Source: a virus
Length of the DNA stretch: 64,000 nucleotides
Virus record (IMG/VR): IMGVR_UViG_3300045988_165212
Direction: 5' to 3' (one strand)
Positions within the stretch are counted from its first letter, which is position 1. Each line of letters starts with the position of its first letter. Below, in pieces: positions 10,828 to 33,336 of the stretch. The notes under the pieces were generated by a model. It was not told the origin of the DNA, did no database searches, and was given only the letters and a program-made list of their open reading frames with translations. The position numbers and the translations under genes are program-made.

Positions 10828-10834
10828 TATGGGG

Positions 10835-15359: not shown

Positions 15360-15361
15360 TT

Positions 15362-15985: not shown

Positions 15986-15990
15986 GGCGT

Positions 15991-16215
15991 ATGGACAAAT
16001 ACAAGGACGGTGATACCATTTTCGTCTTGATGACGGCAGAGCAATGCAAGTCGGTTATGAGAGAATGGCTTGAACGTGATTACGAGTGCGACTTGAATGT
16101 AATGCGCTCACAGAAGAATAAAGGCAAGTTTGTACTGAAAACAAAAAGTCTGATGTGGGCAAACAGAATCATCCAGTGGCATGGATATGAAAAAGTAACT
16201 TATCAAATAATATAG
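15991..16215 (+). CDS. hypothetical protein
   Basis: ORF track gives 15946..16215. The ATG at 15991 directly follows the upstream stop. Confidence 0.4.
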   Translation: MDKYKDGDTIFVLMTAEQCKSVMREWLERDYECDLNVMRSQKNKGKFVLKTKSLMWANRIIQWHGYEKVTYQII

Positions 16216-16218
16216 CTT

Positions 16219-16395
16219 ATGGAAGAAGTGATTGAAAGCCTGGTGGCAATCATCAAGGACAAGACAAAGGATTTTACCTACTTGGATCAAGAACAGATGT
16301 TCAGAGACTTGTCTGGCAGATTAAACGATATGTCGCTTGATGCCATGAAATGTGAGTATCTTGGTGAGAGAAAGGAGGTGGCAGACAATGAGTAA
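16219..16395 (+). CDS. hypothetical protein (58 aa, below the ORF-track cutoff)
   Basis: ATG at 16219 and TAA at 16393, read from the sequence (MEEVIESLVAIIKDK...). Fills an otherwise empty gap in a tightly packed operon. Confidence 0.35.
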   Translation: MEEVIESLVAIIKDKTKDFTYLDQEQMFRDLSGRLNDMSLDAMKCEYLGERKEVADNE

Positions 16396-16627
16396 AGAAC
16401 GAAGGGTGTTAGAACTGGTTTCACCATCATGCCAAGTCACCCATGAGAAAATAGTGAGTCAAGGGCATGAATGTGGATATTGCCACGGCAATGGTTACTT
16501 CTGGGGACGTGACGCCAATTGGGAAAGCGTGAAAGTTCCTTGCCCTATATGCCAAGGCAAGAAAGAAATGAAAGCCATCATTGAAATAACATGGCTACCA
16601 AACAATGAAAAGACAACTAAAAAATAA
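16388..16627 (+). CDS. small DnaJ-type zinc-finger protein
   Basis: Likely start at ATG 16388, preceded by AGGAGG. Motifs CGYCHGNG and CPICQGKK (CxxCxGxG-type). Confidence 0.5.
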   Translation: MSKERRVLELVSPSCQVTHEKIVSQGHECGYCHGNGYFWGRDANWESVKVPCPICQGKKEMKAIIEITWLPNNEKTTKK

Positions 16628-16633
16628 ACGAAT

Positions 16634-16903
16634 ATGAGTAAAATCAGTAATTGGTTCCATGCTATGCGTGAGAACTGCAAGAAAAAGGCTGAACAGAAAC
16701 GTGCAGCGCAAGTGAGAGAAGAAGCCAGGTCAAGACTACAGGCAAGAGAGTTCAATGGCAAGATATTCCTATGCTTCGACAATGTGCCAATACTGGAGAC
16801 GGAAGACTTGACCCTTGGCATGGCTGCAAGCGTGAAAGAGGCACGCCAGTATTTTATGACTTACAGAGGTGTCGGCCATGAAGCAGCAAGTAACGAACTT
16901 TAG
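16634..16903 (+). CDS. hypothetical protein
   Basis: 89-aa ORF in the operon. Confidence 0.45.
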   Translation: MSKISNWFHAMRENCKKKAEQKRAAQVREEARSRLQAREFNGKIFLCFDNVPILETEDLTLGMAASVKEARQYFMTYRGVGHEAASNEL

Positions 16904-17345
16904 CCGTTTCTTTGCCTCATTCAACGAACTGCCTTGCTATTGTGGCAGTCGTGAAGAGTTCAAGAAGGAAATTGTCAGTCAATACACTTTCGGACGCACA
17001 GAGAGCTTGAAGGAAATGACTTGGCAAGAGTACAATGATTGTTGTGACGGTCTGGAGAAACTGAGCGGTCGAAAAGATAGATTGAAACGCAATCGCAGCA
17101 TCTGCCTAAAGCTGATACAAGAGATTGGCGTGGACACAACCGACTGGCAGCGCATCAATGAGTTCTGCAAGCATCCTCGAATTTGCGGAAAGGAGTTTGC
17201 CAGAATCCGACTTGACGAAATGGAAGATTTCCAAAGAAAACTCAGAGCAATCAAGAAGAAAGGCGGTTTGAAAGAGAAAGAAGACGTGAACAATCCTGGC
17301 AGGATGGTGATGTATATCCCTTTGGATGGAATCCCTCATGCCTAA
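16878..17345 (+). CDS. hypothetical protein, possibly GemA/gp16-like
   Basis: ATG at 16878. The resemblance to the Mu gp16 (DUF1018) layout is recalled from memory only. Confidence 0.4.
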   Translation: MKQQVTNFSRFFASFNELPCYCGSREEFKKEIVSQYTFGRTESLKEMTWQEYNDCCDGLEKLSGRKDRLKRNRSICLKLIQEIGVDTTDWQRINEFCKHPRICGKEFARIRLDEMEDFQRKLRAIKKKGGLKEKEDVNNPGRMVMYIPLDGIPHA

Positions 17346-17374
17346 AAATACAACCCATTTTAAACGACAAGACA

Positions 17375-18109
17375 ATGGAAGAGAACAAGAAACAGACAGT
17401 AGAAATGACAGCGGAAGAGGCAGAAGCCTTCAAGCAGTTCCAAGAGAAGCAAGCCAAGGAAAAGGCTGCTAAGAAGCGCAAGGAAGACCGTGAGGCTTAC
17501 GCCCAGTTGGTGGACAACGAGATTGAGAGTGCCATCCCCGAACTTCGCAGCCTGTCAGAACAGATGCTTGCAGTGAAGAGCAAGGTTTATGAGAACTTTG
17601 CGGAAGTCATCAACATCAAGGCAAACGTGTTGAAGCTGACCAAGGACACCCAGCGCACACACACCTTCACCCATTCAAACGGAAAGATGCGCCTCACGCT
17701 TGGTTACAACTGCATTGATGACTACCGTGACACAGTGAATGACGGCATTGCCATCGTCAAGCAGTACATCGAGAGCCTTGCAACCGACACCAAAAGCAAG
17801 GAACTTGTGGCAACCATCCTACAGCTATTGAGCCGTGACGGAACAGGCAACTTGAAGGCAAGCCGTGTGTTGCAGCTTCGCAAACTGGCAGACAAGAGCG
17901 ACAACGACCAATTCAAGGAAGGTGTGCAAATCATCGAAGAGGCTTATCAGCCATCGCTCACCAAACAGTTCATCAGAGCTGAGTGGAAGGACGAACACAA
18001 CAAGTGGCACATCATCCCATTGAGTGTGACAGATGTAGAACAAACAGAAACTAAACAAGAAGCCAATGAAGACAACGACAACCAAGGCACCCAAGGTGGC
18101 ACTGTGTAG
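17375..18109 (+). CDS. hypothetical protein, possibly DUF3164-like (Mu-family)
   Basis: 244 aa. The pattern ..RLTLGYNCIDDYRD..LQLLSRDGTGNLKASRVLQLRKL.. resembles the DUF3164 layout as I remember it. Confidence 0.45.
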   Translation: MEENKKQTVEMTAEEAEAFKQFQEKQAKEKAAKKRKEDREAYAQLVDNEIESAIPELRSLSEQMLAVKSKVYENFAEVINIKANVLKLTKDTQRTHTFTHSNGKMRLTLGYNCIDDYRDTVNDGIAIVKQYIESLATDTKSKELVATILQLLSRDGTGNLKASRVLQLRKLADKSDNDQFKEGVQIIEEAYQPSLTKQFIRAEWKDEHNKWHIIPLSVTDVEQTETKQEANEDNDNQGTQGGTV

Positions 18110-18248
18110 AATGTGCCACGGCACTGGGAGAAAGGGCGAGGAAATTTGCCCACAATGTGAAGGAAGTGGACGTGTGACAGTGAGCTGTGAAATGACACTT
18201 GACATCCGTCCATATCATCCAAAGGTTAAACATACAACAAACAATTAG
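18066..18248 (+). CDS. small DnaJ-type zinc-finger protein
   Basis: CRMCHGTG x6 CPQCEGSG. Overlaps the upstream ORF by 44 nt. An alternative ATG at 18111 would remove the first Cys. Confidence 0.45.
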   Translation: MKTTTTKAPKVALCRMCHGTGRKGEEICPQCEGSGRVTVSCEMTLDIRPYHPKVKHTTNN

Positions 18249-18252
18249 CCCC

Positions 18253-18504
18253 ATGGGAAAGCGACGCGGACTAAGTTATCAGAAACGTGTTGCTGACATC
18301 AACAGGATATATGACCGGCATATCAAGGACGGTGTTCCAAACCGTGAGATATGGCGCAGGTTCATATATCCTGAGTATGCTATCAGTGAGCGTCAATTTT
18401 ACAATATATTGAAAGCGTCTGCTGAATCAAAGAATGAGATTCCAGCAGACGCTCAACCGTATCTTGATTTTTGGAATGATGAGCAAGGAAAAGACTATTA
18501 TTAA
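18253..18504 (+). CDS. hypothetical protein (possible regulator)
   Basis: ATG at 18253 (MGKRRGLSYQKR...). Basic N-terminus. No firm motif. Confidence 0.45.
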   Translation: MGKRRGLSYQKRVADINRIYDRHIKDGVPNREIWRRFIYPEYAISERQFYNILKASAESKNEIPADAQPYLDFWNDEQGKDYY

Positions 18505-19051
18505 GAGGATTCTGAATGACATCCGCGTTGACCTAAGTGACGAGTTTGACCAGAACTTTGAGCGAGAGGCATTTTTCAGCGAGGCATGGGAACGGCACAG
18601 AAGCCCCCTTCGACCAGGTGGGCATATTCTTGTTGATACAGGCACGCTGAGGAGAAGCGTCAGAAGCGAGATGAAGGAAACGAGCATCCGCTTCTTCACT
18701 GATTTGCCATACGCCGACATTCACAATGAAGGCGGTGAGATAGTGGTGACAAAACGAATGAAAGGCTATTTCTGGCACAAGTACATGGATGCCGCAGGTG
18801 CATTGACCTTTGCAAGGCGCAAGGACGGCACGCAGCGCAAGGACAAAAAGACACGGCACATCAGTGACGTGGCAGAGTTCTGGAAGTTCATGGCCTTGAA
18901 GAAGGAAGGCACGACAATCAAGATACCAAAGAGGCAGTTTCTGGGTTTGTCACCAGAGGTGGAAAAGGCAGTTACGGACATCATCGAGGATAATTTGCAA
19001 GAATACCTCGGAAAGGAAATGGAACATTTTGAAAAACGATTGAAGAAATGA
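18476..19051 (+). CDS. phage virion morphogenesis (Mu G-like) protein
   Basis: LVDTGTLRRSVRSE...FFTDLPYADIHNEGG matches the morphogenesis-family pattern (dtG.Lr.S...pYa..H..Gg). Confidence 0.6.
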   Translation: MMSKEKTIIKRILNDIRVDLSDEFDQNFEREAFFSEAWERHRSPLRPGGHILVDTGTLRRSVRSEMKETSIRFFTDLPYADIHNEGGEIVVTKRMKGYFWHKYMDAAGALTFARRKDGTQRKDKKTRHISDVAEFWKFMALKKEGTTIKIPKRQFLGLSPEVEKAVTDIIEDNLQEYLGKEMEHFEKRLKK

Positions 19052-19491
19052 GAAAAGAGATTTACAAGATGCTTTGTGAGCGTCTGGGCAATATACCAGA
19101 AATCAAGTATATTGACCTTTGGAACCACAATGTGGAGTTCATTGAACAAGAAGACAACTGGGAACGTCCAGCGGTGTTTGTGGAGCTTTGCCCAATCAAC
19201 TGGGAGGCTACGGTGGCAGGTATGCGCTATGTGACAGAAGCGAAAGTGAACTTGCACGTGGTGACAGACTGGTTGGGCAGCAGTGCAGCCAACAGCGACC
19301 AAAGAGAAGAGAGTTTGACCGTGTTTGACCTCTTGGAAAAGATTCACACAGCCCTGGCAGATGTGGACGGTGAACATTTCAAGGAGTTCGACATCAGCAA
19401 TTCGACAACCAACCACAACCATGAGGATATTTTGGAAAACATTGAAACTTATAGTTATGTGGGTTACAGAGAACTTGGCCAGTCCAAGTAA
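19048..19491 (+). CDS. hypothetical structural or neck protein
   Basis: 147-aa ORF translationally coupled to the morphogenesis gene. Confidence 0.45.
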   Translation: MRKEIYKMLCERLGNIPEIKYIDLWNHNVEFIEQEDNWERPAVFVELCPINWEATVAGMRYVTEAKVNLHVVTDWLGSSAANSDQREESLTVFDLLEKIHTALADVDGEHFKEFDISNSTTNHNHEDILENIETYSYVGYRELGQSK

Positions 19492-19501
19492 ATATAATTA
19501 A

Positions 19502-19537
19502 AGCATCCGATGCCTTGACAGCTTCGGATGCTTTTTT
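19502..19537. terminator. bidirectional rho-independent terminator
   Basis: AGCATCCGA (19502-19510) pairs with TCGGATGCT (19524-19532). T-run on the plus side and an A-run/T-rich flank on the other. Sits between convergent genes. Confidence 0.7.
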
Positions 19538-19563
19538 AATGTCCTTCGGATGTCGTTTGACCC

Positions 19564-20046
19564 TTACTGATACAAGCTCAAATCAAAAGCATCCTTCTTC
19601 TTCCATCCCTCAGCCAAGGTGTTTTGCACATATTCGGTGGCTTTCAGATAAAAGTCGGCGAGTTCTTCAAGTGTGTCAAACGTATGGTATGACGGTTCAT
19701 CCTCAGTTCCAAACTTGAACGTTACTGGCAGCGTCTTTCCTTCCGTTTGCACGGCAAGGTCATAAGCAGCCTTATAGTTGAACTGGTTTTCAGTGGATAG
19801 CCACACTGCCTGACCCTTATATGTGAAGCCAGAAATGATGGCTTGGTCAGTCTGTTCGTTGTACCAGTCCAAGACGGTTCGCTTGATGTCATCCACAGAA
19901 GGCTTGCCATTGGTAAACTCTGCCTCCATGTAGTTGGCCGAACCGTCCTCTTTAACTATGACATCCCAACGGATGCGCCATTTGTTCTTGACGGGGTTCA
20001 CGCATTCAAGCAGTTTCACCACCGCACTTCCTTCTGTTCGTTTCAT
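19564..20046 (-). CDS. hypothetical protein translationally coupled to the DGR RT (possibly DUF4376-like)
   Basis: 160 aa. Its start overlaps the RT stop (TAATG). No Avd-like features. Confidence 0.55.
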   Translation of the reverse strand: MKRTEGSAVVKLLECVNPVKNKWRIRWDVIVKEDGSANYMEAEFTNGKPSVDDIKRTVLDWYNEQTDQAIISGFTYKGQAVWLSTENQFNYKAAYDLAVQTEGKTLPVTFKFGTEDEPSYHTFDTLEELADFYLKATEYVQNTLAEGWKKKDAFDLSLYQ

Positions 20047-21347
20047 TAGCTAAATACGTATTTGGTTCTACCTTTGCCAAATGTCTCTGTTCTGATAGTT
20101 GTCTCAAAAGGCAAGCCATCTGGCAGTTCACTAATCTGTTGGAGAATATTCTTCATTTCCTCCGAATTGGTGAAAAACTTCTTTGCCTCACCGTTCTGTT
20201 CGATGGAGACAATGCAGCGGTCTTCGCCTTGCTCAGTCTTGATGCCAAGCTCGAAGTCCTTCACGATGATTGGTAAGTTCACTAATTCCCTGATGCTTAC
20301 CACTGACCCAGGGAAACGCTTCTTGCCATCCGCTGGCTTATAAGAAACGTTCAAATCTTTAAATGATCTCATTGTTTTGCCTGTTAATTTATTAAACAAT
20401 CTATTACAGTCGGCGTGCTTTGTCATGCCATAGAAACTGGCAATCAGCTCACGCCTTCTTTTCCTCGATTTAACCTCGTGCATTTTTCGGGCAAACTTCT
20501 GCTTGATACGCTTGCGTATCGCCACATGGTCGGGATATATGACATATCCCAAGAAGTCAATGCCCTCATCCACTGGGAACACCCTTTCATTTGGCTTTAT
20601 CTCCAAATCAATCTGGTTCACCTGAGAGTGGATAATTTCACGAATCACCCATAATTCCGCTTTCGTTTTACCAAGCACAAGGCCGTCATCACAATATCTG
20701 TAGAAATGAGCGACCCCACACTTATCTTTCAAATAGTGGTCTAAAAATACAGACAACAACAAGTTGCCAGTGGCTTGCGAGCTTCTTAGTCCAAAGCTGA
20801 TGCCTCTGTCCAGCATGGTAACAAAGGATTCCAACATAACGAGCAGCTTCTGGTCTTTGAACACACGGCGGTAGCACCACATGGCAAAGTCTTGACGAAC
20901 ATTCTCATAGAAATGTCTGATGTCAAACTTGTAGGCATATAGCGTGCCTTCTGGGTCATGCTGCATATCTTGACGAATTACCTTCATAAGGTCGTGCGTG
21001 CCACGTTCCTTGATGGATGCTGCTGTTGTGCGTATGTAACGTCTTTGCAGATGTCTGTCCACCACGGACATTATAGCATGGACACCTATGCGGTCTTTCA
21101 TCGAAAGAATCTGCAAGTTCCTTTCTTTGCCGTATTCGTGGATTGTGCGCTCACGGTAGCCACTCACACGGAAAGAGCCATTGGCAATTTGCTCTGTTAG
21201 CTCCTTAATCACCTCTTCACGATGCGCAAGCAAGTAGCGTCCCTGACGTGAGCGTTTCCGCTTCTTGCCACGGAGAACTTCATCAAACGACTCTGACATA
21301 TTGGAGTAGTCAATGATTTCTTCTATGATGTAACCTTCTCTACGCAT
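20046..21347 (-). CDS. DGR-type reverse transcriptase with a ~130-aa C-terminal extension
   Basis: RT motifs: GKERNLQILSMKDRIGVHAI, YAYKFDIRHFYENV, GLRSSQATGNLLLSVFLDHYL, FYRYCDDGLVLG and GIDFLGYVI. Adjacent to the Asn-codon-rich repeat. Confidence 0.9.
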   Translation of the reverse strand: MRREGYIIEEIIDYSNMSESFDEVLRGKKRKRSRQGRYLLAHREEVIKELTEQIANGSFRVSGYRERTIHEYGKERNLQILSMKDRIGVHAIMSVVDRHLQRRYIRTTAASIKERGTHDLMKVIRQDMQHDPEGTLYAYKFDIRHFYENVRQDFAMWCYRRVFKDQKLLVMLESFVTMLDRGISFGLRSSQATGNLLLSVFLDHYLKDKCGVAHFYRYCDDGLVLGKTKAELWVIREIIHSQVNQIDLEIKPNERVFPVDEGIDFLGYVIYPDHVAIRKRIKQKFARKMHEVKSRKRRRELIASFYGMTKHADCNRLFNKLTGKTMRSFKDLNVSYKPADGKKRFPGSVVSIRELVNLPIIVKDFELGIKTEQGEDRCIVSIEQNGEAKKFFTNSEEMKNILQQISELPDGLPFETTIRTETFGKGRTKYVFS

Positions 21348-21497
21348 TGTTAATAATTTTATGGCCTTTTGGCCTTCCTGTCTCTGGGCCTGACTTCTTC
21401 GAGCCGTAAGAACGGCCTACCAAACTCCACCCAACACTTGATTTTTCAGCTTTCCCATATTGGTAGTTTGCTGAGGTTCGTTTCCCTCGGCTCCATG
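21348..21497 (-). ncRNA. 150-nt spacer between the DGR repeat and the RT (candidate DGR RNA spacer)
   Basis: Non-coding. Contains small hairpins, e.g. GCCGT-TCTT-ACGGC and GGCC-AAAA-GGCC. Position analogous to the TR-Sp-RT arrangement. Confidence 0.35.
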
Positions 21498-21664
21498 TTA
21501 GGAATCACGTCCCTGGTATGGTAGGCCGATTGATGGTGTAATCAGTTTGTCCAGGCGTGAGCCGACATTCGCATTCGCATTCGCTGCATCGTTATTCGCA
21601 TTCGCATTCACGACACCGCCATTCGCATTCGCGTTGTTGTACCCACGATAAACCACACGGCTTA
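21498..21664 (-). repeat. DGR repeat copy in VR position (in-frame 3' end of the tail-fibre ORF)
   Basis: Encodes SRVVYRGYNNANANGGVVNANANNDAANANANVGSRLDKL...; 11 AAY codons in 27 residues. Identical to 48213..48379. Confidence 0.7.
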
Positions 21665-24600
21665 CTGATGTGCTTATCCAATATATATCACTATAATATG
21701 TACTGGACGAACCGCTGACATTACCAACAGGCACAACATCCATGTATTTGCCATGATAAACGGCTGTTACCCAGTTTCCGCTGTTAGTCGTACCTTTTAC
21801 CATTCGTGTGCTTCCGTCTGGCATCCAAATGCGCCACTTGCCAGCATTGCCACTGTCATTTGGCAAATCCACATTGTCCATCATATCGTACTTGTTGCCG
21901 AATATGTCTTCATAACCCAAACAACAAGTATTATTTACTTGCTTGACATCTACGGCTCCATATTCACCATTAACCTTGTACCAAGCGTATTGGTTCACCA
22001 AGTTGTCAATGAGCGAATTTGTGACATTTGCGTTGATTGCCTTTGCAGCCTTGTAGCCAATGGTGTCAGTCATACCGTATGCCATTGTTCCGCCTGTAGT
22101 TCTCATGTTGGTGTGCTGACCTGCTCCACATTGATCTTGGGCATCCCTACGACCATACTTGGCAAAGAACAAGTTGGCAATGGCACTGTGCATACTTGCG
22201 TCAATCTGCTGCATACCACGTTGAACACTGTAATAATGGAAGTCGCTCCATGCCATGTTTGCTGTGGTGCTGCCACCAGTAACCACAGCCCTAAGTTTAT
22301 CACCCACAACGGAACTTCCAACAGTTGCACACAAACAATCATCCTCATTGACCCAATCGGGTTCCATATCCTCAATCTTGTCGCTGTTGCTCAATACCAC
22401 CTTGTCAAACTCAGCGGTCTGCAATACAGTAAAGTTGAGGTATGTCGCATCAGAAGGAATGTCGGAAATCAAGTACATACCTGCCTCAAACTTATTGCTA
22501 AGTGTTGGCACAACGATGGTTTTGACTACCTTTCCCGAATCATCCGTGAAAATGCTTCCAACAAGATTGCTGCCTGGCACAGAAGGAAAACGAACACGCT
22601 TATAGCCTGATACAGACACACGACAAACGGCATAGCTGCTATCTGCTGTATATGAGTTTTGCAAGGTGTTCTTGCCACTCATTACCTTATATCCTTTGCG
22701 ATAATTGCCACCATTTTGTATTTCACTCAGCAAAATGACTGTTGCTTTCGGAACAGATGGCATGGCAACATTACTACTGTAGCAGCTATAATGCTTACCA
22801 TTCAGGTAGTCATTGATTCCCTTGATCCATCTGTGAGGCTCGAACATCATAATGTCGCCCTCTGAGCCATCCAACTTTGCTGCGGTGCAATTAGCCACCT
22901 CTGCTGCATCTGCATAATAATTGGAGTTCTCATCATGCAATGGATATATGGTGACAATGCCATCAAGATTGTTTGCAATGGTATCAACACCAGCTATCTT
23001 GATGTTTCTTGTTGTAGGCTTCTTTGTAACCTTGGCAAGAACACGATGACGCTTCTTCAAAAGTGCCGTGATATGACCACTTGGCACATAGTCATTGCCA
23101 TACTTATAGCCAGTCTTATTGTCAAGGTTGGACACATTGGCATCATCCGCAACAGTGTCATCAAACTCAATCATCGTGTATTCTGGTTGAATGATGTTCA
23201 GCTCTGGGAAATGTTCTTGCCACTTCTTGTATTCTTCATCAGCTATGTATGAAGTGAGGCGATAAGTGCCAACCAGACGGCATGAATCCACATTGCCACC
23301 GTTTTCATCAACACCACCCATCGAAAGCATATTCTTTAGCATGGTTCCGTCACCTTCCATGTCTATGCCTGTAATTCGTAGATACTTCACTTTGCTGCAT
23401 CTGCTGTAAAGTGTCTGCCAATTTATCAATGGGCAATTATCCACAACCAGACGTGTGACATTTGAGGTTCCTTCAAGTGTGAGACCACTGTTTGTGAGCT
23501 TGCTCAGATAGCGGAGTTCCAAGGTTTGCAGCGTTGAAGGCAACACAACTGTCTTCAATGGTGAACCTTGTGCGAAGCTCACGCCTGTCAAAGCACTCTT
23601 CCCTGCACGGAATGTTTCCAGCTTGGTGTTTGCGCTCAAATCAATGCCTGTGAAGCTGGTGGATTTCAAACCAGTCATATTGAGCGTGCGAAGGTTCTTG
23701 CATCCGTTCACAAGCAATGCGTTGAGCGTTGTCTGTGTCGCAGCACAACTTACATCAAGCGTGCGAAGTGCCGAACAGTTGTTGAGGTTCAACGTCTGCA
23801 AGATGGCATGGCTCACGTCCGTAAGGTCAAGCCCCATGATGCGACTTGCACCATACACGTATTGTGGATCATTCACAATCAAGTCGGTGTCAAGTGTCAG
23901 TTGCACCATACTGCCTGTGTCTTCTGCCAGGACTGCACTCTGATGCGGTGTGCCACTCGTATAGCCATAACCGAAATAATAACGCTCACTTGACGTTATC
24001 TTTATCTTTCGGTTGTCGCTACCGAACTTATAGCCAAAGTAAGCAGCAAAGCTATCCTTGCGGTATGTACCACACACATATTGGCTATCCAGCAGCGCAA
24101 AACGGTTTTGGATGGTGAACGTGCGGTGTGCGTAACGGCTTCCCTGCAAGGCATAGAGGTAATTGTAATAATTCGTTCCATCCGCTGATGTCACGCCTTC
24201 CGTCAAAGGAGTGATATACTTGTATATGCCATCCTTGTTGTAGATTCGTTCACACCAGTTGCCCATCTGTTCCACATTGAACATATTAAGCACATATTCG
24301 AGGCTCATGTTTGAGCGAATCTTGTCAGCCACCTCTCTCAATTTGTCTGGGCATCCTCTGACAAGTTCCCAAAGAACGCTGTCATGTCCAGCAAAGGCAT
24401 AGGAGCCAATGCTTTCATCCAAGGTTTCCCATGTAATGGTATAGTCATACTTCAAGACGGAATCATTGCGCTCACCAAAGATGGTGTCCATGTCGTATGG
24501 AATGAACTGCCAGTGAAGACCGTCCCATGTGACAAGCATCATGTTCTTGGCACGGTTATCCACCGCCATGAAATAGTCCGTTATCACATACCATGCAAAT

Positions 24601-27600
24601 GGGCTGTCATTGTCAAAGTAATCATTGTACTCTGCATAGAACTTGCTTGGATTTCCCTTGCATGAGAGAATCCACGACCAAAGACGCTTGACCGCTGCCT
24701 TGTCTTCCTCATTGGCGGTTTCCCAAGTGTCATCAGCCTTGAAACGGAACTCCAGGGCATCGGCAAATGAAGTCATGTCAGCCGTACCAAACAAGCAAAG
24801 TGTCTCAGAGTTGTTCAAGAACTCCAAGCAGATACATTTGTTTCGCTGTCCGTTCAAAGCTGCTGCATCATTGAAGCCCTCAATGCCCTCAAAGCCATAG
24901 ATGGCTGCACTGCCACTTTTCTCATTGTTGAAATTGTACTTGCCAAGGTAGATGTTTTCACCAGTATTGTCATTGTCATAGAACAAATCAATAGGGAAAC
25001 CATCCACACCAATACGGACATCATAGTTGCCTGTATATGTCTTTTGTGGTGGTGTGAGCCATCCGCAACGCTTCCAGATGTCATTGACTATCTTCACGGC
25101 TCCAGTGTTATGAGTGGAAGAGGAATCTGAGAAATCCGCTTTCAAACAGAAAATATTTATTGGACGTGCGCCTGGCTTGAATGAATAGGTACATTCAGGA
25201 ACTTCCACACCATTCACATACAGCTTGGTTCCATACTTGCTTGAACGGCTGAAATACAAGCGGTAGTTCTTTCTTGGATAAGTGGTTGATGATGTTCCCT
25301 GTATGCGCAATCCGCACTGGTATATGATGAAATCATATTCCTTGCCATAGGCAGAATAGAAATAGATGTCAACAGGCACTTCAAACTTCTTGTTGTTGGT
25401 CTGATTCACAAGATTCACATCGCCCACAATGCGCATCACGCTCTTGCCCTTGGCTCTGAGCTTATCCATATCAACGTCCGTACCTTCATCATTCATCACC
25501 TGATTGTTCTCGAACAGCACAACCATTTCATCAGTAGTAGGACGATCCACCATGTAGTTGGCAAGTTCTTCATCATCGCCAAGCGCACGGTTATAGACAC
25601 GGATGTTTCTCAGTTCCACATCTGCACTATCGCTTCCAACCTTGATGTTGACAGGTGTCGATTGCAAAAGACTGTCGGTGTTGGCATACTGCTTCGCACC
25701 GCAAAGAATACCGTTTACATAGAGTTCCAACAGACGGTTGCCAGACTTCTCTTGCACGACAAAGGCAATTTTCAAGTTCAAGCCACTCGCAAAAAGCGTA
25801 TTGACCTCCGTTCCTGCCCCTGTTCTCATTATAGCCTCTTGTGTGGTCAGCTTGAAGCCGACATTGCCATTCATGCAATCAATGACAACACCGTTTCTGT
25901 CTGTCACATTGGAACACATCAGTTCCATTTCATAAGTGGCTCCATTGGTTGTGGCATCGCTCTTGAATGGTGTGTAACCGATTTCGATGTTTGCCCCATT
26001 GGTCAGTTTCAAAGCGTCACCAGTCCATCCGTTGCTTTTCCAGTCAAAGCCATTGAACGTGGTTCTAATGCCGTTATAAGTCCATTCGGACGGTGTACTT
26101 TCACTGTTGCTTCTGCCTGATGCTGTAAGTTTCAGTTGCAAGCCAGATGTTGTCTCATTCAGGTCAATGCCACTTTCATTCACATCAATGTAGAAATTGT
26201 ATTCAGTGACACCACACTTGAATTTCATTTGGTTTGTTCCCTTTTCAAGGAATCGGTTTGTGTAAATCTGTGTGGTTCTTGGCACACTTACATTCTGCGT
26301 CTTGATGTCATTGCGATATACAGACACATCCGCTGGTGTCGCTGTTGGGTCATAGGCAACGAACTCAAATTTTACTTGCTCATATTGTCCAGCTTCCAAA
26401 GTTGGTGCCAAATGGTCTTTTGTAAAGATACGACCATCCGAGTGCGTCATCATGGTTCCGATAAAAGGCGAATTGCTGCCTGTTTTCAGAATATCCATAT
26501 AGATGCTATCGCTCTTCAAGGTCAAGTCTGCACTTGCCTCCATTTCTGCCACCATTTGGATGGTGTGCCTTCCCACACTGAATGCGGTCATTGACAACGA
26601 GAAACTGCTGTTGGTCGTTCCGCTTCGTGTTATGGTGTGGGCATTCTGCTGTTTGCCATCCACATAAAGCGTCACCACCTTGGTTCCCGAGCCACTTATT
26701 GCGTATGGAATACTGATGGTCTCGTTTGTCCCATAGCCACCCTTTGCAATGGCTTCTGCAAGGTTGAAACTGCTTGCCAGGGATAACGTCACGACCTTTA
26801 CGCTCACATAGCTCTGTTTCATCTGCTTCTTGCCAGTTGTCGGATCAGTAGTGGATGCTTTTACATATATGTCGGTTGTACCAACCTGCAAGTATTTGGA
26901 GAGGTCAAGCGTATAACTTCCCTTGCTCACATCCTCGATGGTGTCATGGTACATGGTGATTGAACCACGTTTCATTTCAATCTCAATGGTTGCTTTCTGG
27001 CCTGTTGACGTACCTTTCTCATCACCGCTGCTATATTGGTGGTCGTAAGAGTATGTGAGTTGCGCACTGCCACCTTCCTTGATGACACTGTTGTTGACGG
27101 ATGCGCCCAATACAATCTTTGTGGTGGAAGTTTCACCACCACCGCCACCTTTTCCTGCTGGTATGTCCAAGCCCACGACTTCCGCACCACTCTTGTTGGT
27201 TAAGGTAAGATGTACCGTGCTTTCATCCTCACTAAGTTCAGCATTGCCACCAAAGATGGTGTTTGCCTCCACCTCATTGAGCTTCGCCGTCACTGCTGAG
27301 TTCTGCACAGGGTTCGTGCTGTTTGCGTCAAGACTTTCATCAACCTCAGTTTCCTTGATGGTCACATTCACGTTGCCAGTGGAATCAGGTGTTTGCTTCG
27401 TGCCATTTACCGTTATACTCTTGACAGTCCCTGCACCGCCGAAATCTTCCCAACTTGAAATTGATTCCCAGCTTGAAAGATTCGTGCCAATGAATTGCTT
27501 GGTCTCCCACTTGCCTTGTGATACCTCATAAGTTATGCAACGTCCCTTGGCACGCTGCTTTTCCTCCACTGCTTTGATGGCAGTGGCAAGCGTATAGTAA

Positions 27601-28322
27601 CCGTTTTCAAGCGGAACTTGCTCAGTCACATTGTACGTGTTACCGCCACCGCTGCCACTGATTTCAACAAGGTCATTTTCTTCATCGCTCCAAACATAGA
27701 GAACATCACCACAAAGATAAACCTTGTTTTTCTGTATGCTTGAAACATCCTCACCACGGTACAATTCCGCATTGGGAACACCTTCAACAGCCCAGTTGCC
27801 GTAATACTTGCCACCCACATAATAGGCAAATTGCTTTTGGCTCTGCACATAGACGATTACACCGCCCTTGGCAATGGATGATTGAAGTTGTATTGTGGCA
27901 GATTCCACCATATAGGAAAAACGTGCCGTTGCACCATTGAAAGCAGCCTTGGCTACATTCTCGTATTTAGCCACAACCTCAGATGCAGCAGCCACAGCAC
28001 TATTAGCTTCTTCCGCTGCATCAGAAGCTGCTGACGCGGCTGCATTGGCTGCACTTGCAGCAGAATTTGCGACCTGTGTGATAGAATACACGGTTTGCGC
28101 TGCTTCCGTTGCTCGATTTGCTGCACTTACTGCATTTGCCACAGCATCCTCCGCTGGTTTGGTCAGCAGCTTTATTGGCGCACTCACTACTTCCTCACCT
28201 CGTAAGGCTGGAAGGCTCATAATACCGTCCAAGCTATCTACTTGCTCCAGTTCATCTACACCTTGCGATTCAGCTTTCATCGCATTGAGTAGTTCTTGCT
28301 TCTCTTCGTTTGTCAATGCCAT
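21498..28322 (-). CDS. giant tail fibre / receptor-binding protein, DGR target (LamG-like, CotH-like, LRR and C-terminal lectin-like/VR domains)
   Basis: 2274 aa. LamG-like LELYVNGILCG..IRVYNRALGDDE. CotH-like YPRKNYRLYF, LKADFSDSS and NRAKNMMLVTWDGLHWQFIPYDMDTIFG. LRR run NCSALRTLDVS..CKNLRTLNMTGL... C-terminus has CLGYEDIFGNKYDMMDNV plus the VR. Confidence 0.85.
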   Translation of the reverse strand: MALTNEEKQELLNAMKAESQGVDELEQVDSLDGIMSLPALRGEEVVSAPIKLLTKPAEDAVANAVSAANRATEAAQTVYSITQVANSAASAANAAASAASDAAEEANSAVAAASEVVAKYENVAKAAFNGATARFSYMVESATIQLQSSIAKGGVIVYVQSQKQFAYYVGGKYYGNWAVEGVPNAELYRGEDVSSIQKNKVYLCGDVLYVWSDEENDLVEISGSGGGNTYNVTEQVPLENGYYTLATAIKAVEEKQRAKGRCITYEVSQGKWETKQFIGTNLSSWESISSWEDFGGAGTVKSITVNGTKQTPDSTGNVNVTIKETEVDESLDANSTNPVQNSAVTAKLNEVEANTIFGGNAELSEDESTVHLTLTNKSGAEVVGLDIPAGKGGGGGETSTTKIVLGASVNNSVIKEGGSAQLTYSYDHQYSSGDEKGTSTGQKATIEIEMKRGSITMYHDTIEDVSKGSYTLDLSKYLQVGTTDIYVKASTTDPTTGKKQMKQSYVSVKVVTLSLASSFNLAEAIAKGGYGTNETISIPYAISGSGTKVVTLYVDGKQQNAHTITRSGTTNSSFSLSMTAFSVGRHTIQMVAEMEASADLTLKSDSIYMDILKTGSNSPFIGTMMTHSDGRIFTKDHLAPTLEAGQYEQVKFEFVAYDPTATPADVSVYRNDIKTQNVSVPRTTQIYTNRFLEKGTNQMKFKCGVTEYNFYIDVNESGIDLNETTSGLQLKLTASGRSNSESTPSEWTYNGIRTTFNGFDWKSNGWTGDALKLTNGANIEIGYTPFKSDATTNGATYEMELMCSNVTDRNGVVIDCMNGNVGFKLTTQEAIMRTGAGTEVNTLFASGLNLKIAFVVQEKSGNRLLELYVNGILCGAKQYANTDSLLQSTPVNIKVGSDSADVELRNIRVYNRALGDDEELANYMVDRPTTDEMVVLFENNQVMNDEGTDVDMDKLRAKGKSVMRIVGDVNLVNQTNNKKFEVPVDIYFYSAYGKEYDFIIYQCGLRIQGTSSTTYPRKNYRLYFSRSSKYGTKLYVNGVEVPECTYSFKPGARPINIFCLKADFSDSSSTHNTGAVKIVNDIWKRCGWLTPPQKTYTGNYDVRIGVDGFPIDLFYDNDNTGENIYLGKYNFNNEKSGSAAIYGFEGIEGFNDAAALNGQRNKCICLEFLNNSETLCLFGTADMTSFADALEFRFKADDTWETANEEDKAAVKRLWSWILSCKGNPSKFYAEYNDYFDNDSPFAWYVITDYFMAVDNRAKNMMLVTWDGLHWQFIPYDMDTIFGERNDSVLKYDYTITWETLDESIGSYAFAGHDSVLWELVRGCPDKLREVADKIRSNMSLEYVLNMFNVEQMGNWCERIYNKDGIYKYITPLTEGVTSADGTNYYNYLYALQGSRYAHRTFTIQNRFALLDSQYVCGTYRKDSFAAYFGYKFGSDNRKIKITSSERYYFGYGYTSGTPHQSAVLAEDTGSMVQLTLDTDLIVNDPQYVYGASRIMGLDLTDVSHAILQTLNLNNCSALRTLDVSCAATQTTLNALLVNGCKNLRTLNMTGLKSTSFTGIDLSANTKLETFRAGKSALTGVSFAQGSPLKTVVLPSTLQTLELRYLSKLTNSGLTLEGTSNVTRLVVDNCPLINWQTLYSRCSKVKYLRITGIDMEGDGTMLKNMLSMGGVDENGGNVDSCRLVGTYRLTSYIADEEYKKWQEHFPELNIIQPEYTMIEFDDTVADDANVSNLDNKTGYKYGNDYVPSGHITALLKKRHRVLAKVTKKPTTRNIKIAGVDTIANNLDGIVTIYPLHDENSNYYADAAEVANCTAAKLDGSEGDIMMFEPHRWIKGINDYLNGKHYSCYSSNVAMPSVPKATVILLSEIQNGGNYRKGYKVMSGKNTLQNSYTADSSYAVCRVSVSGYKRVRFPSVPGSNLVGSIFTDDSGKVVKTIVVPTLSNKFEAGMYLISDIPSDATYLNFTVLQTAEFDKVVLSNSDKIEDMEPDWVNEDDCLCATVGSSVVGDKLRAVVTGGSTTANMAWSDFHYYSVQRGMQQIDASMHSAIANLFFAKYGRRDAQDQCGAGQHTNMRTTGGTMAYGMTDTIGYKAAKAINANVTNSLIDNLVNQYAWYKVNGEYGAVDVKQVNNTCCLGYEDIFGNKYDMMDNVDLPNDSGNAGKWRIWMPDGSTRMVKGTTNSGNWVTAVYHGKYMDVVPVGNVSGSSSTYYSDIYWISTSVSRVVYRGYNNANANGGVVNANANNDAANANANVGSRLDKLITPSIGLPYQGRDS

Positions 28323-28324
28323 AG

Positions 28325-28609
28325 TTATTCGTTTTTATCCGTTTGACAATTTAGTTGCTCATTCAAAGCGTCTATGATACTTGGAAAACAATAGTGTTCC
28401 ACAAGTTCTTTTATGAGATTGACTTCATCATCGGAAAATTCCGTTGCACCATTGCTCTCATATATTTTGAAAGCCAAATGATGTGCTTTTATTCCCATGG
28501 AACGAGTGTAAACCAAATTTGCAATGGTTTCACGAGCGTCACCTGTTTGCTTTCTTTTTTTACTAATCCCTACAGGAATAGTGAAATTTTGAAAATCTAT
28601 TTTTGCCAT
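28325..28609 (-). CDS. hypothetical protein
   Basis: 94-aa ORF between the baseplate and tail-fibre genes. Confidence 0.45.
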   Translation of the reverse strand: MAKIDFQNFTIPVGISKKRKQTGDARETIANLVYTRSMGIKAHHLAFKIYESNGATEFSDDEVNLIKELVEHYCFPSIIDALNEQLNCQTDKNE

Positions 28610-28619
28610 ATCTTGTTTT

Positions 28620-31600
28620 TTAACGGTTTATGTCTAATACTTGACCATAATAGGAGCCACTAACATAAGTAAGGGCTATGCTTACACTGTCACCTTTTCC
28701 TAAGCAAAGTTGGTCTGTGTTTCTGTTATCATCACGCCAATGTCCTCCATCATGGTTTAGCAAATCGCCATCACCATTTATTTTAACATAAACATTGTTA
28801 GAACTCTTTGAGCTATTTATGATTTTAACAGGGACACAAAAGGTTTTACTTTCTTCTATTCCAAGCTGCAATCGTATTTCATCCAATTTTGGCAAGGAAA
28901 CCCATGTGTTACCAGAAGAATTATTAAAAGCGGTCAATGTCGTACCATGGTCGAGTGTTATGATGTAAGCTGTACCTGCTTTTGTTGTATTGATAATTCT
29001 ACCAATTTCTAAGAATCCTCCATCACATACAATAGCTCCTTTTGTATAAAGTGCAACATCACGACTCAAGACATTATCACTTATTATTTTCACTGCTGGC
29101 AAATAACAGTCACCAGGATCAGGATTCATCTGCCGATAAAAATAACCAGCACAATTGCACCAGGAAGTTGATTCTGTCTGTTGTGGGTCTGCACCATTGC
29201 CAATAGCAACCTTTATGTTAGCCACATCACCTGGCTTGAATACTCCTACTTGTGATTGTAACTTAATCAGTCCTGGTCTAATTGCCGCTAAATCTTGTTT
29301 ATAACTATTATCTGTCCATTTTGCTGGGTCGCCATAATACAAGCCTTGGTTGTCTATCAGGAAATATCCTATTTTGCCTTCATAAGCCTCAATTTTACCT
29401 TTTATCTTGGCATTTTGTGCCTCAATGCTACCATCCTCCAATATTTTGAAATTTTCGTTGGCAGTCACAAGTCCTTCCAGCTTGATGTTGTCGGCACAGA
29501 TATGCACACCGCTTTCCAAATTTCCATTTTCATCTTTTGTGACGAATGCGGAAATGTCTGCCTGTTTGACAATGTTCTTGTCTTCATCTACCGCTGTGGC
29601 AAACATACCAGCAAAAGCCTCGATGCTGACATAATTGCCAATTTTCTCATTCAATCCCATCATGTCAGAATTGTACTGTTGCAACCATTCTGCATAGTCT
29701 GTAGCTGTCACAAGTCCAGCTTGGTTCTTTAGACTTCCGTCCTCATTGAACCTTTGGCTGATAAGTTCATTATACTTTGCTGTTGTTATGATGTCGCTTT
29801 CAGACAAAACATTGCCGTCCTTATCAAAATTTTGGGCTGCAATCTTTACAAGTGTTTCACTTTGTTCAAACAGCGTCTTATACTTGTATGCCAATGATTC
29901 CACACGGTCAGTTGAAAGAATGAGCATATACAGATAGATGTCGCCTGTGAAGCTCAGTTTGAAGTCACCAGTACCATTCCAAAGGCCATTGCAAGAATAT
30001 TGCTTGTAGCCATCAGTCTCAGCAATTTCCTCTTCAACGTGCATGGAGTTGAAATTTTCAAAGCCAGTCTTATCAACATTCTCAAACTCCACGGTCAATG
30101 TGCCAGCCTTGGCACATCTGTAGAAGAACGTGAGGAAAACAGGAATTGCCTCTTTGGTTCCGTCTTCTCTTGTGGTCATTGGTGGAATGCTCTGCAAATT
30201 GGTGTTCTTCTGGCTGATGTACTTGTTTCTGATGCGTACAACAGTTCTGCCCATGTCCTTACAGACACTTGCGCTGTTGCCACGTTTGGACAAAGCCTTT
30301 CCGTTAGTCCATATCCAACGATTGCCAGCGAGGAAGAAAACCGTTTCGTTCTCTGTAGCCCATTTGTCCATGCCATCAGAAAAGGCTGGATTGTTCAAAT
30401 AGCCTCGATCACTTGCAAAGTCCTGTCTCAGTCCCTCAACAGCGGATTCAATCTTTCCTTCCGTTATCTCGAACTTGGTCTTGATGTCTTCACCAGTCAC
30501 CAAGAGAAATGTACCACGTAAGTAGGCATTATCTGAATAAAGACCGTTTCCATGTGGTTGGTTGTTGGACGGAAACCAATCATCCTTGATTCCGTCAAGA
30601 TTGCCAAGTCTTGCACGCAAGGCATTGGTGAAACTCTTGCCATTCACACCATCCATGACATCAATCCTGGGCTGTCCGTCTTCTGTCGCTGATATGAGTA
30701 TGAGGTTTTGGCGATTGCTGTTTGTGGTGTTGCCCATCAATACACATTCATCGCCTTCTGCTGGTTCCGTCTTGTCAAACTCTTCCTTGGCTACAAGAAT
30801 GCCATCACCGTTCACACCTGCGACCTCGACCCAATAACTTTTCAGATTTGCACCCGTGAAGGTTTGACATCGCATCAAGTCATGTGCAACAAAAGTGTTT
30901 TCTTGCTCGAAGCGAATGAGGTAATAACCATCTTGCTCTTCAACACTCTTTATCTTGCCATTGGCTGCACTTACGCAAATCTGACCGCCGACACTCCTAA
31001 TCTTATTTATCAAGAGTTCAAAGATGGTCATTATCTGGCGCACGGTCAGTTTGTCAACAGTAAGATTGGAAAGACCACTTTCATCAATCCAAAGCTGCCA
31101 TCCCTCACCATTGAAGCCATCAACAAACTTGGCACTTCCCAAAAATTGGCGCACCACCATTGTCAGCAGTTCACCATTGCCTTTGCCATCCAAGTGACCA
31201 CCTGCAACGCCCTCCACAAAGTCACCGAGGTCAATACCCTCATCAAAGATGATTTTCTTTTTCGCTCGATCAATTTTCTTCTTACTAAGAAATTCCCTTT
31301 GGCTTCTTCGAGCTGAGAACAGATTTGTGTCAGTTGGCAAAGTGTTGTCCCATGTACGGATGATGTCTGGCAAACTTCCAGATGTGCGCTCACGTGTATA
31401 GTTCTTGATGTTGACCAAGCTGTCATTCACCTGATCCAATGTGCCACTTTGGAGTGCATCACTGATTTCCAAGTCCACTTGTGAAGGCAAGACAACCTTT
31501 CTTGTTATCTTGGTTATTCGGCTGCTTCTATACCCAGTATCAAGGAAAAACTTCTCACTTTCAAGCCTTACCCTACGACCAACGAACAAGTCTGCATTGT

Positions 31601-32846
31601 TCTGTTCCACCCAAACATGGTCGGTCTTGCCTTTGTAGATGCTGATGTCTTGCCAGTGTTCCGCATTATATTGGTCAACAGCCGTGCGGAACTCTTCTTC
31701 AGCAAGGGTGTAATATTCATCTGGCATTCTGATGTTCCAGAGAATGTAATGGTTGCCCTCTTTGGGAACAAGATTACCACCAGGCAGTTGCGTGTCATCA
31801 TCGTATGGCCATATCGTGATAATTTCAAACTCACGTGTCTTGCTGTCGAAATTCACCTCAAAGTAATGATCATCATCTGTTCCAAGACCTGCGAGTTCAC
31901 CATCTTGGAAGGAAACACGCTTTACCTCATTGGCAAGCTCGTATTCATTTGGGTCGAAATTGAGCGTATCATCCTTGAAGTAATAGATGATGAAAGGATT
32001 GCCGTCATCATCCGTCTTTGTCTCAGAGCGCACGCTGCTGACCAACCCTAAACGCCGTGGGTATATGCCGGAAAAGGCATCTTGCTCATAATGGTCATAT
32101 ATGCCGTATTCCTCAGTATGAAGTTCGATGTATTTCAAGCCACCAGGCAACATCAAGCGATTATGACCATATTTCTCTGGGTCGATGTTTCGTGTGCTGC
32201 CAATCGGGAACAGACGTGTGTAGAACTTGGCTGTGTTGCTGGTGTCTCGCTCCAGTTCTGTCAATCCATTGCCATAGCCAATGGCAAGTTCCTCACCATG
32301 TTCACAACGGCAAATGTTTACAGTTTGCCCCTCAATCCACCATTCGGCCTTTCCACCTACCTTTTCAGCGATTTCCTTCAAGGCTTCATCGCAATACTTA
32401 CCATCATAGTCAATGACAATGTTATCAGTGCCATCCACTTGGCCAATCTTCCAGTCAGTAGTATGATCCAAGCCATTATTGATGCACTTCACTATCATCT
32501 TCACATGGTCACGTGGTGGAGCCGTGAGAGTGAACACTGGTTCTGCGTTGCCGTCAGTGGTTTCAAGCACCAGGAAACGTTTGATGATGCTCTCAATGCC
32601 ATATAGCTTCAAGTCATACACCCATTCTGTTTCACTGTTCTGCTTTGGGGCATACTTTTCCATCAGCCAATAACGTTCGCCCTCAAAGTCCGTGTAATCA
32701 TTCACGTCAAGGGTAATGTTGGCATAATGGGTGAATGAAAGGGTGAGGATGTTGTCACCCTGCACCTCCTTCACTTGTGTTGAGCTGTCATCAGGGGCAA
32801 TCTCAGCCTTTGCATAGCCTGTTTTGTCGTATATTGTTTGAACCAT
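28620..32846 (-). CDS. tail-associated / baseplate hub protein (Tal-like minor structural protein)
   Basis: 1408 aa, two genes downstream of the tape measure. The N-terminus resembles siphophage tail-tip proteins. Confidence 0.65.
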   Translation of the reverse strand: MVQTIYDKTGYAKAEIAPDDSSTQVKEVQGDNILTLSFTHYANITLDVNDYTDFEGERYWLMEKYAPKQNSETEWVYDLKLYGIESIIKRFLVLETTDGNAEPVFTLTAPPRDHVKMIVKCINNGLDHTTDWKIGQVDGTDNIVIDYDGKYCDEALKEIAEKVGGKAEWWIEGQTVNICRCEHGEELAIGYGNGLTELERDTSNTAKFYTRLFPIGSTRNIDPEKYGHNRLMLPGGLKYIELHTEEYGIYDHYEQDAFSGIYPRRLGLVSSVRSETKTDDDGNPFIIYYFKDDTLNFDPNEYELANEVKRVSFQDGELAGLGTDDDHYFEVNFDSKTREFEIITIWPYDDDTQLPGGNLVPKEGNHYILWNIRMPDEYYTLAEEEFRTAVDQYNAEHWQDISIYKGKTDHVWVEQNNADLFVGRRVRLESEKFFLDTGYRSSRITKITRKVVLPSQVDLEISDALQSGTLDQVNDSLVNIKNYTRERTSGSLPDIIRTWDNTLPTDTNLFSARRSQREFLSKKKIDRAKKKIIFDEGIDLGDFVEGVAGGHLDGKGNGELLTMVVRQFLGSAKFVDGFNGEGWQLWIDESGLSNLTVDKLTVRQIMTIFELLINKIRSVGGQICVSAANGKIKSVEEQDGYYLIRFEQENTFVAHDLMRCQTFTGANLKSYWVEVAGVNGDGILVAKEEFDKTEPAEGDECVLMGNTTNSNRQNLILISATEDGQPRIDVMDGVNGKSFTNALRARLGNLDGIKDDWFPSNNQPHGNGLYSDNAYLRGTFLLVTGEDIKTKFEITEGKIESAVEGLRQDFASDRGYLNNPAFSDGMDKWATENETVFFLAGNRWIWTNGKALSKRGNSASVCKDMGRTVVRIRNKYISQKNTNLQSIPPMTTREDGTKEAIPVFLTFFYRCAKAGTLTVEFENVDKTGFENFNSMHVEEEIAETDGYKQYSCNGLWNGTGDFKLSFTGDIYLYMLILSTDRVESLAYKYKTLFEQSETLVKIAAQNFDKDGNVLSESDIITTAKYNELISQRFNEDGSLKNQAGLVTATDYAEWLQQYNSDMMGLNEKIGNYVSIEAFAGMFATAVDEDKNIVKQADISAFVTKDENGNLESGVHICADNIKLEGLVTANENFKILEDGSIEAQNAKIKGKIEAYEGKIGYFLIDNQGLYYGDPAKWTDNSYKQDLAAIRPGLIKLQSQVGVFKPGDVANIKVAIGNGADPQQTESTSWCNCAGYFYRQMNPDPGDCYLPAVKIISDNVLSRDVALYTKGAIVCDGGFLEIGRIINTTKAGTAYIITLDHGTTLTAFNNSSGNTWVSLPKLDEIRLQLGIEESKTFCVPVKIINSSKSSNNVYVKINGDGDLLNHDGGHWRDDNRNTDQLCLGKGDSVSIALTYVSGSYYGQVLDINR

Positions 32847-32870
32847 GTTTCAATACTGTTGTAATGTCAT

Positions 32871-33335: not shown

Positions 33336-33336
33336 A

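Follow-up and report, generated by a model that had tools for sequence, protein, structure and literature searches.

The 64,000-nt viral record IMGVR_UViG_3300045988_165212 (analysed at its full length and referred to here as the window) carries a diversity-generating retroelement (DGR) whose reverse transcriptase (RT) and template repeat (TR) appear twice, on opposite strands. Our analysis strongly favours a single real DGR, belonging to a Mu-like gut Bacteroidales prophage of ~38.7 kb, in a window that was folded back on itself by a misjoin at the TR, most likely an assembly error. A preliminary description had placed a compact DGR here, with the last ~45 codons of a 2274-aa tail-fibre open reading frame (ORF) as the variable repeat (VR), an RT 150 nt downstream and a 167-nt copy at 48213-48379 as the TR. 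The gene positions given there agree with the ORFs of the window, namely a 433-aa RT ORF (20046-21347) and a giant ORF of 2274 amino acids (21498-28322), both on the minus strand and separated by 150 nt. The four RT motif strings (DRIGVHAI, FDIRHFYENV and YCDD among them) were found at residues 85, 141, 190 and 218, and the C-terminal string RVVYRGYNNANANGGVVNANANNDAANANANVGSRL was found in the giant ORF as claimed.

The second copy is exact from 48213, as had been stated; it is, however, not a 167-nt repeat but the inner tip of an inverted repeat of 15,791 nt identified by repeat search (5877-21667 versus 48210-64000), which ends only at the window edge and has a single mismatch along its whole length (21665 G, 48212 A). 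Within the repeat lie a complete RT (48530-49831) and a DUF4376 gene, each for the second time in the window, together with the early genes, the left end of the phage and ~4 kb of host sequence, such that the window reads: host, left end, early genes, RT and TR; then target to MuF; then TR, RT, early genes, left end and host. The left end was mapped to 59977, mirrored at 9900, by divergence against 8 of 10 loci, and is similar in sequence to the left end of Bacteroides phage p00 (BK010646), the Hankyphage reference (Benler 2018, PMC6199706; PLoS Biol 2025, PMC12135933). Positions 59978-64000 are host DNA of the left flank of the window in reverse. Neither a VR tail nor a phage right end was found within the window. 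That the arms are true long inverted terminal repeats of the phage was ruled out, as they carry host DNA past the mapped left end.

Both repeat copies were aligned with the VR and TR regions of p00. Past the sequence CGCCTGG, each copy, including the one at 48210, runs into a homologue of the p00 spacer between TR and RT, and neither runs into the p00 VR tail (GCCTTCCGCGGC..., AFRG...). Both copies are TRs, because each continues into a p00-like TR-RT spacer and a full structured RNA of the Rfam family RT-3. The 3' end of the giant ORF, which had been taken for the VR, is an unmutated TR followed by the non-coding RNA that lies downstream of it: the last 56 codons are TR and non-coding spacer, the final 11 of them overlapping the mirror copy of the RT-3 RNA (21531-21385), so that the 2274-aa ORF is chimeric. 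Instead of the GFR-type ending that had been read there, it finishes in GSRL-DKLITPSIGLPYQGRDS, its true homologues in GSRL-AFRGQIVWAQSVSAFKSISEVA; the residues A378, F379, R380, A386 and S388, which are invariant after the VR (alignment A1), are missing from it. No TR/VR pair differing at TR adenines was found inside the window, the two copies proposed as such a pair being identical. Recent non-mutagenic homing was ruled out as the source of the TR-like ORF end, the identity extending 15.6 kb past the repeat.

The same strain was found in an independent MEGAHIT contig of 67,910 nt (ERZ27229799:k119_275841), located via the GH2 protein of the host flank, which carries the same prophage at the same insertion site. 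Its left part is colinear with and 100% identical to window 1-18188, and its right part corresponds to window 42846-21551 except at 11 sites, all of them A in the window versus G or T in the contig and situated at 21568-21637. The contig runs from host through the left end and early genes to the RT cassette (reversed) and MuF to TerS (reversed), followed by protease to target, VR, right end and a different host flank, with a phage of ~38,710 nt. The RT cassette region was placed by gap length, its sequence being unfetched: the gap of 8,842 nt has the exact length predicted by an order of tail_S, 147-aa gene, DUF4376, RT and TR followed by MuF to TerS. In this contig TR-RT-DUF4376 adjoins MuF, on the strand opposite to the VR and 26.5 kb away from it, in place of the adjacency of RT and target that had been described; by comparison, the unique 26.5-kb segment is inverted in the window, where the left arm occurs twice. 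TR and VR of this strain differ by 12 A-to-N changes and by no others.

The true target was recovered by look-up of the 1408-aa tail protein in three loci (L013-L015, the first supplied by the same contig) as a protein of 2279 amino acids with the C-terminus ...VGSRLAFRGQIVWAQSVSAFKSISEVA, ending in AFRGQIVWAQSVSAFKSISEVA. The VR ends 62 nt before the stop codon of this protein and has been replaced by TR in the window ORF. The 3' boundary of the TR/VR homology is GTCGGCTCACGCCTGG, and a hairpin (GGCAGTTAGGATGGTGTTCTAACTGCC) lies ~100 nt downstream in the true VR locus. Five loci diverge into different flanks ~216 nt after the target stop, and the phage right end is therefore placed there.

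Other assemblies agree on the position of the cassette. All ten long contigs shown (from MEGAHIT, SPAdes, JGI and an NCBI genome) have portal and MuF followed by TR-RT and DUF4376, and then, on the other strand, the 147-aa gene, tail_S, early genes, MuB, MuA, repressor and differing host genes. The junction at 48210 is genuine, because these ten independent contigs all have MuF before the RT cassette, and the repeat there, for which the preliminary description had assumed a partner VR within the window, is the authentic TR in its natural surroundings. The exact RT protein was present in 3228 assembly blocks, and follows MuF in each of the ten places shown. The fetched loci comprised 43 normal TR contexts, in which the cassette of independent assemblies follows MuF rather than lying 150 nt from a target, 7 normal VR contexts and one abnormal junction (1/51).

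A compact DGR as first described would account for the ORFs, the motifs and the exact 167-nt match, and canonical Hankyphages do carry target, VR, TR and RT on one strand. It has nonetheless become very improbable: its two repeats are the same bar one base, over 15.8 kb; its supposed VR is TR plus RT-3 spacer with no VR tail; canonical Hankyphages have two repeats between target and RT, by comparison with one here; and in the same-strain contig the VR is mutated, the C-terminus differs and the target is not followed by an RT.

That the element is a DGR was correctly recognized, given an RT homologous to that of Hankyphage, a TR with an RT-3 RNA and adenine-specific variation of the VR. When eight true VRs were compared with the TR, 107 adenine positions differed and 6 others (Fisher p 1.5e-62), so the variation that had been proposed as a check is present in related genomes; the few non-adenine differences agree with an alternative TR allele in locus L008. 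The TR itself was identical in 9 of 10 assemblies, and contains 31 adenines and 11 AAY codons in the VR reading frame. It is internally repetitive, with (GCGAAT)n units at 21567-21635 and 48242-48310, and the repeat finder returned extra 42-nt inverted matches within it (I2 and I3; 83%, offset by 27 nt). The VR of locus L024 is 12 nt shorter than the TR, two GCGAAT-type units being gone (GTGAGTGCTTACGATGCC versus GTGAATGCGAATGCGAATAACGATGCAG) through an in-frame indel in the repetitive part.

The RT contains the SQ-containing motif and YCDD, and shares 73-82% identity with the RTs of Hankyphages, whose DGR has been shown experimentally to be active, with VR diversified in culture and in virions (PMC12135933). 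An alternative would be a group II intron, retron or defence RT lying near a repeat by chance. The only NCBIfam matches of the RT are indeed to group II intron RT/maturase (72 bits versus a cut-off of 300), Drt3a and Drt2; all, however, fall far under their cut-offs, and the identity to the RT of an active DGR, the adjoining TR, the remote matching VRs that vary only at adenines and the RT-associated structured RNA between TR and RT make such an origin scarcely credible. This RNA matched RT-3 over the full model (1-148) with 126.9 bits versus a gathering score of 40.5 (E 5e-32). In BPP-1 the RT-10 motif sits between TR and RT, and RT-class motifs have been described beside RT genes (PMC5737381, Weinberg 2017). 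The RT-3 RNA occupies the position taken in BPP-1 by the spacer RNA from which cDNA synthesis is primed and, by analogy, could have a priming role.

By homology with Hankyphage and BPP-1, a TR-RNA with a 3' structured spacer would serve the RT as template, with wrong bases incorporated opposite adenines; the cDNA would then take the place of the VR in trans and recode 11 AAY codons of the C-terminal ligand-binding domain, diversifying the tip of the tail protein. The sole target is the giant CotH-containing tail protein, with its 3' end beside the phage right end, 26.5 kb off and on the opposite strand. Bacteroides promoters have the -7 consensus TAnnTTTG; TAACTTTG upstream of the TR fits this consensus and is possibly the promoter of the TR-RNA/RT transcript. 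Judged from its sequence, the hairpin and T-run between the convergent DUF4376 and 147-aa genes is probably a bidirectional terminator closing the TR-RT-DUF4376 unit. Some gene callers report a 75-aa ORF at 47955-48182 (L005, L009 and L012), spanning the end of MuF and the AT-rich spacer and overlapping the promoter-like region; it is unlike the small ORF between VR and TR in p00 and looks non-coding.

The conserved partner of this RT clade is the DUF4376 protein and not Avd: its gene follows the RT in 79 of 80 related loci. The DUF4376 model (predicted local distance difference test, pLDDT, 92.7) comprises a beta-sheet and three long helices, and had no match when compared with the PDB; its matches in BFVD are DUF4376 proteins of many phages, including ones without known DGRs. 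The possibility that DUF4376 is itself an Avd was ruled out by sequence (no NCBIfam match) and, as far as the predicted fold indicates, by structure (no PDB relative). This casts doubt on the "Avd" label in some Hankyphage annotations.

The target is a giant tail protein of a Mu-like phage, as had been proposed; it contains a CotH domain and has ~2279 amino acids, and the phage is a transposable prophage. A Pfam CotH match covers residues 1005-1287 (~24462-25310) and the body of the protein has 55% identity to the p00 target, for which a C-type lectin domain has been reported (Benler 2018, PMC6199706). An alignment of 41 C-terminal fragments has variable columns that alternate with invariant ones. 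The Mu-like character is indicated by homologues of the p00 MuA-like and MuB-like proteins and by AAA_22, Portal_Mu, Mu_F, Gp36, tail_S and DUF3164 matches (the MuA homologue had no Pfam match of its own); there were at least five different left flanks and at least five different right flanks among independent copies. TAAT/ATAAT was observed on both sides of the prophage in the correctly assembled contig (window 9895-9899; L013 past the right end), consistent with a 4-5-bp target-site duplication of Mu-like transposition, the ends being ambiguous by one base.

The origin of the abnormal junction was considered from the sequences that meet there. The longest identical run between TR and VR of this strain is 27 nt (repeat positions 3-29); 21665 retains a VR-type G and all past 21638 is TR-type. 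The crossover is placed at 21638-21664 because TR and VR share at most 27 identical bases there. With TR and VR inverted and identical over 27 nt, the assembler would have crossed from the target gene into the TR and then run back out along the same arm to give a fold-back contig that would be missing the true VR along with the final 25 target codons and the right end of the phage. A misassembled target-RT junction is likely, and is the most likely explanation given that one arm is duplicated with host DNA, the right end is lost, invariant residues are missing from the ORF and the same strain is normal elsewhere. The chimeric 2274-aa product was not on record by exact look-up in the gene index, and searches of IMG/VR (from two different anchors), JGI metagenomes and GTDB genomes returned no window-type junction.

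One reciprocal junction was found in IMG/VR, at ~2000-2450 of contig L106 (IMGVR_UViG_3300045988_151757), and none in JGI metagenomes. L106 runs from portal-MuF through TR-upstream sequence, CAA (the TR-type start), a mutated VR, the VR tail and the right end into flank, crossing in the same 27-nt stretch as the window. A mirror-image fold-back was ruled out for this contig, in which the junction of right end and flank occurs only once.

Several observations tell against our interpretation or limit it. Activity of the DGR in this lineage is suggested indirectly, through differences between assemblies. No Avd (four-helix-bundle) accessory was matched in NCBIfam or Pfam. The AlphaFold2 model of the true C-terminal fragment (P0001, built on the 41-sequence alignment) had a pLDDT of 59, and below 50 in the VR region. 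For a C-type-lectin fold of the VR domain, Foldseek gave no significant PDB match, only weak carbohydrate-binding-module and jelly-roll matches to the N-terminal part of this low-confidence model; a VR-domain profile gave E > 1 versus PDB sequences, and Pfam no lectin domain. As to the junction, assembled sequence alone does not separate a misassembly from a real minority rearrangement; 27 exact shared bases are short for a large-k de Bruijn misjoin; and a reciprocal junction in the unrelated contig L106 would also fit recurrent real recombination.

The last two points would also support a real junction, formed by homologous recombination or template switching between the inverted TR and VR (for example in replicative transposition) and present as inversion or fold-back molecules in a subpopulation, as would a crossover in the only long identical stretch and the VR-type G kept at 21665. 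Such an origin is nevertheless improbable: the window duplicates one arm with host DNA, which is no simple inversion, and holds neither the reciprocal junction nor the right end; the molecule would encode a target without its invariant C-terminal residues; the same strain assembles normally elsewhere; and the abnormal junction is one of 51 contexts in the fetched loci, with the window type found nowhere else in the collections searched. We consider it similarly doubtful that the window and L106 junctions are both real products of recurrent recombination or template switching between a TR and VR 26.5 kb apart. If they were, the DGR would, through its own repeats, invert or fold back the entire structural module and give rise to defective genomes, possibly a price of keeping cassette and target apart; a connection with the defective particles that have been reported for Hankyphage is also conceivable.

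An inverted TR/VR pair acts as a contig breakpoint: several contigs end in VR, there is one reciprocal junction and the window folds back. Three independent contigs (L016, L017 and L021) end inside or right after the VR, and assemblies repeatedly break at this hypervariable repeat, of which the TR is an inverted copy. Contigs of this kind can therefore display a "compact DGR" or an "inverted terminal repeat" that is an artefact, and the giant ORF called there has a false C-terminus.

The DGR is an ordinary relative of the known Hankyphage-type system, bearing out the suspicion in the preliminary description that it might be a relative rather than new, and that Hankyphage is the closest described one (RT 73-82% and target 55% amino acid identity). 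Both are Mu-like transposable temperate phages of gut Bacteroidales; beyond RT and target, the likeness extends to DUF4376 (63%), tape measure and tail proteins (55-73%), a homologous 117-nt TR, TR-RT spacer and VR tail, and a similar left end. By contrast, the early, head and packaging genes are only 25-40% identical, with almost no nucleotide similarity: megablast of 24 kb versus p00-type genomes gave at most 2% query cover at 73-79% identity, a nucleotide search of the DGR region against deposited phages returned no p00 match, and the DGR region plus 24 kb of phage matched only short faecal fragments among them. The Hankyphage genus is defined by > 70% intergenomic similarity (PMC12135933); with almost no nucleotide similarity to p00, this phage therefore does not belong to the same genus.

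In p00, target and cassette adjoin on one strand close to the right end, in the order target, VR, 255 nt, TR, 208 nt, RT and DUF4376 with a VR-TR spacing of 370 nt, whereas the cassette here comes after MuF, with the VR 26.5 kb away on the other strand; the window phage also has the tail_S/147-aa block inverted and is without the x-ThyA-methylase genes. Both layouts are represented in the 80 related RTs of Bacteroidales genomes, as the canonical Hankyphage type (target-VR-TR-RT-DUF4376-x-ThyA-methylase) and as a MuF-adjacent type present in ~25 of the 80 loci, isolates included (Bacteroides, Mediterranea, Prevotella, Alloprevotella, Muribaculaceae and Hoylesella). In most MuF-adjacent cassettes, the x-ThyA-methylase genes and TR-RT-DUF4376 form a single block, with the order of ThyA and methylase varying by lineage (L028-L102); besides the window phage, L084 is also without them.

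Wu et al. 2018 (PMC5758913) described two putatively phage-associated DGRs that have no adjacent target, their only one lying ~20 kb away, and reported that DGRs act in trans. These have the same kind of split layout as the window phage, which is shown here to be widespread, in ~25 of 80 related loci. Like the BPP-1 DGR (mtd-avd-TR-brt), the present system has an RT and a TR that contains AAY codons; in both, the gene for a tail receptor-binding protein shows VR changes specific to adenines at its 3' end, and TR and RT are separated by a structured RNA (RT-10 in BPP-1, RT-3 here). The present system differs in having DUF4376 after the RT and no Avd homologue, and in a target that is remote, on the opposite strand and ~2279 amino acids long with a CotH-like domain. 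The 'domain group 3' variable proteins of Bacteroides (bioRxiv 10.1101/2024.11.15.621889) are likewise multidomain, prophage-encoded proteins of > 2,000 amino acids with a CotH-kinase-like motif; that study, by contrast, sorts targets and not cassette layouts, and neither Hankyphage nor DUF4376 is named in its text.

No complete genome of this lineage was found among deposited phage records; it is nonetheless a very common gut prophage, with its TR-RT ~27 kb from the sole target and on the other strand. The pipeline of the DGR survey by Roux et al. searches for targets within 20 kb of the RT (PMC8144416), and the true TR/VR pairing would therefore be missed here; copies that are assembled correctly may be counted as target-less RTs.

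Table 1. Features of the 64,000-nt window, in order of position.
Feature	Position	Strand	Basis or remark
Host (Bacteroidales) chromosome flank	1..9899		Pfam content; boundary from divergence versus 8 of 10 independent prophage copies
HTH/HipA toxin-antitoxin pair	2416-4019		Host flank; Pfam
GH2 + malectin glycosidase	4199-8188		Host flank; Pfam
Left arm of inverted repeat	5877..21667		Host flank, phage left end at 9900, repressor, MuA, MuB, early genes, tail_S-like gene, 147-aa gene, DUF4376, RT, TR
42-nt motif copies	11703-11744, 14201-14242, 15119-15160		Mirrors at 55635-55676 and 58133-58174
MuA	12194-14191		Left arm; p00 homologue
MuB	14236-15111		Left arm; p00 homologue
tail_S-like gene	18434-19051		Left arm
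Hairpin then T-run	19500..19537		Between convergent DUF4376 and 147-aa genes; read from sequence
Mirror DUF4376	19564-20046	-	Left arm (19564..21347)
Mirror RT	20046-21347	-	Left arm (19564..21347)
Chimeric 3' end of 2274-aa ORF	21498..21667	-	Mirror TR 21551-21667, then TR-downstream spacer to a chance stop
27-nt TR/VR-identical stretch	21638..21664	-	Crossover site
Authentic body of DGR target gene (giant tail protein)	21668..28322	-	100% identical to independent contig up to VR
Unique segment, 26,542 nt	21668..48209		Opposite orientation relative to left arm in independent contig
1408-aa tail protein	28620-32846	-	Unique segment
Tape measure	33337-37821	-	Unique segment, with tail/head genes
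TerS	42526-42996	+	Unique segment
TerL	43006-44565	+	Unique segment
Portal	45222-46550	+	Unique segment
MuF	46565-48016	+	Followed by 193-nt spacer to TR
Promoter-like TAACTTTG	48180..48187	+	Fits TAnnTTTG; 23 nt upstream of TR
Right arm of inverted repeat	48210..64000		Inner junction MuF-spacer-TR genuine; runs through left end 59977 into reversed host flank
Genuine TR, 117 nt	48210..48326	+	Identical in 9 of 10 independent assemblies; upstream resembles p00 TR upstream
Structured non-coding RNA, Rfam RT-3 (RF03068)	48346..48492	+	Between TR and RT
DGR RT, 433 aa, native-context copy	48530..49831	+	Pfam RVT_1
DUF4376 protein, 160 aa	49831..50313	+	Pfam DUF4376; start overlaps RT stop (TAATG)

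Further features were noted outside the DGR. The MuF-like protein has 483 amino acids in the window and most loci and 679 in some strains (L003, L008 and L010), a polymorphism of ~200 amino acids, and Pfam Phage_Mu_F matches only residues 121-212. In the host flank, the helix-turn-helix (HTH; HipB-like)/HipA pair lies ~6 kb from the prophage left end, and a 123-nt direct repeat of 93% identity occurs upstream of HTH/HipA (2150-2272) and upstream of GH2 (4074-4196). Within the phage, a 42-nt motif (...ATAACGATTAAARAT...ATG) directly precedes the start codons of three early genes, the 149-aa gene and MuB among them, and may be a shared translation-initiation or regulatory element.

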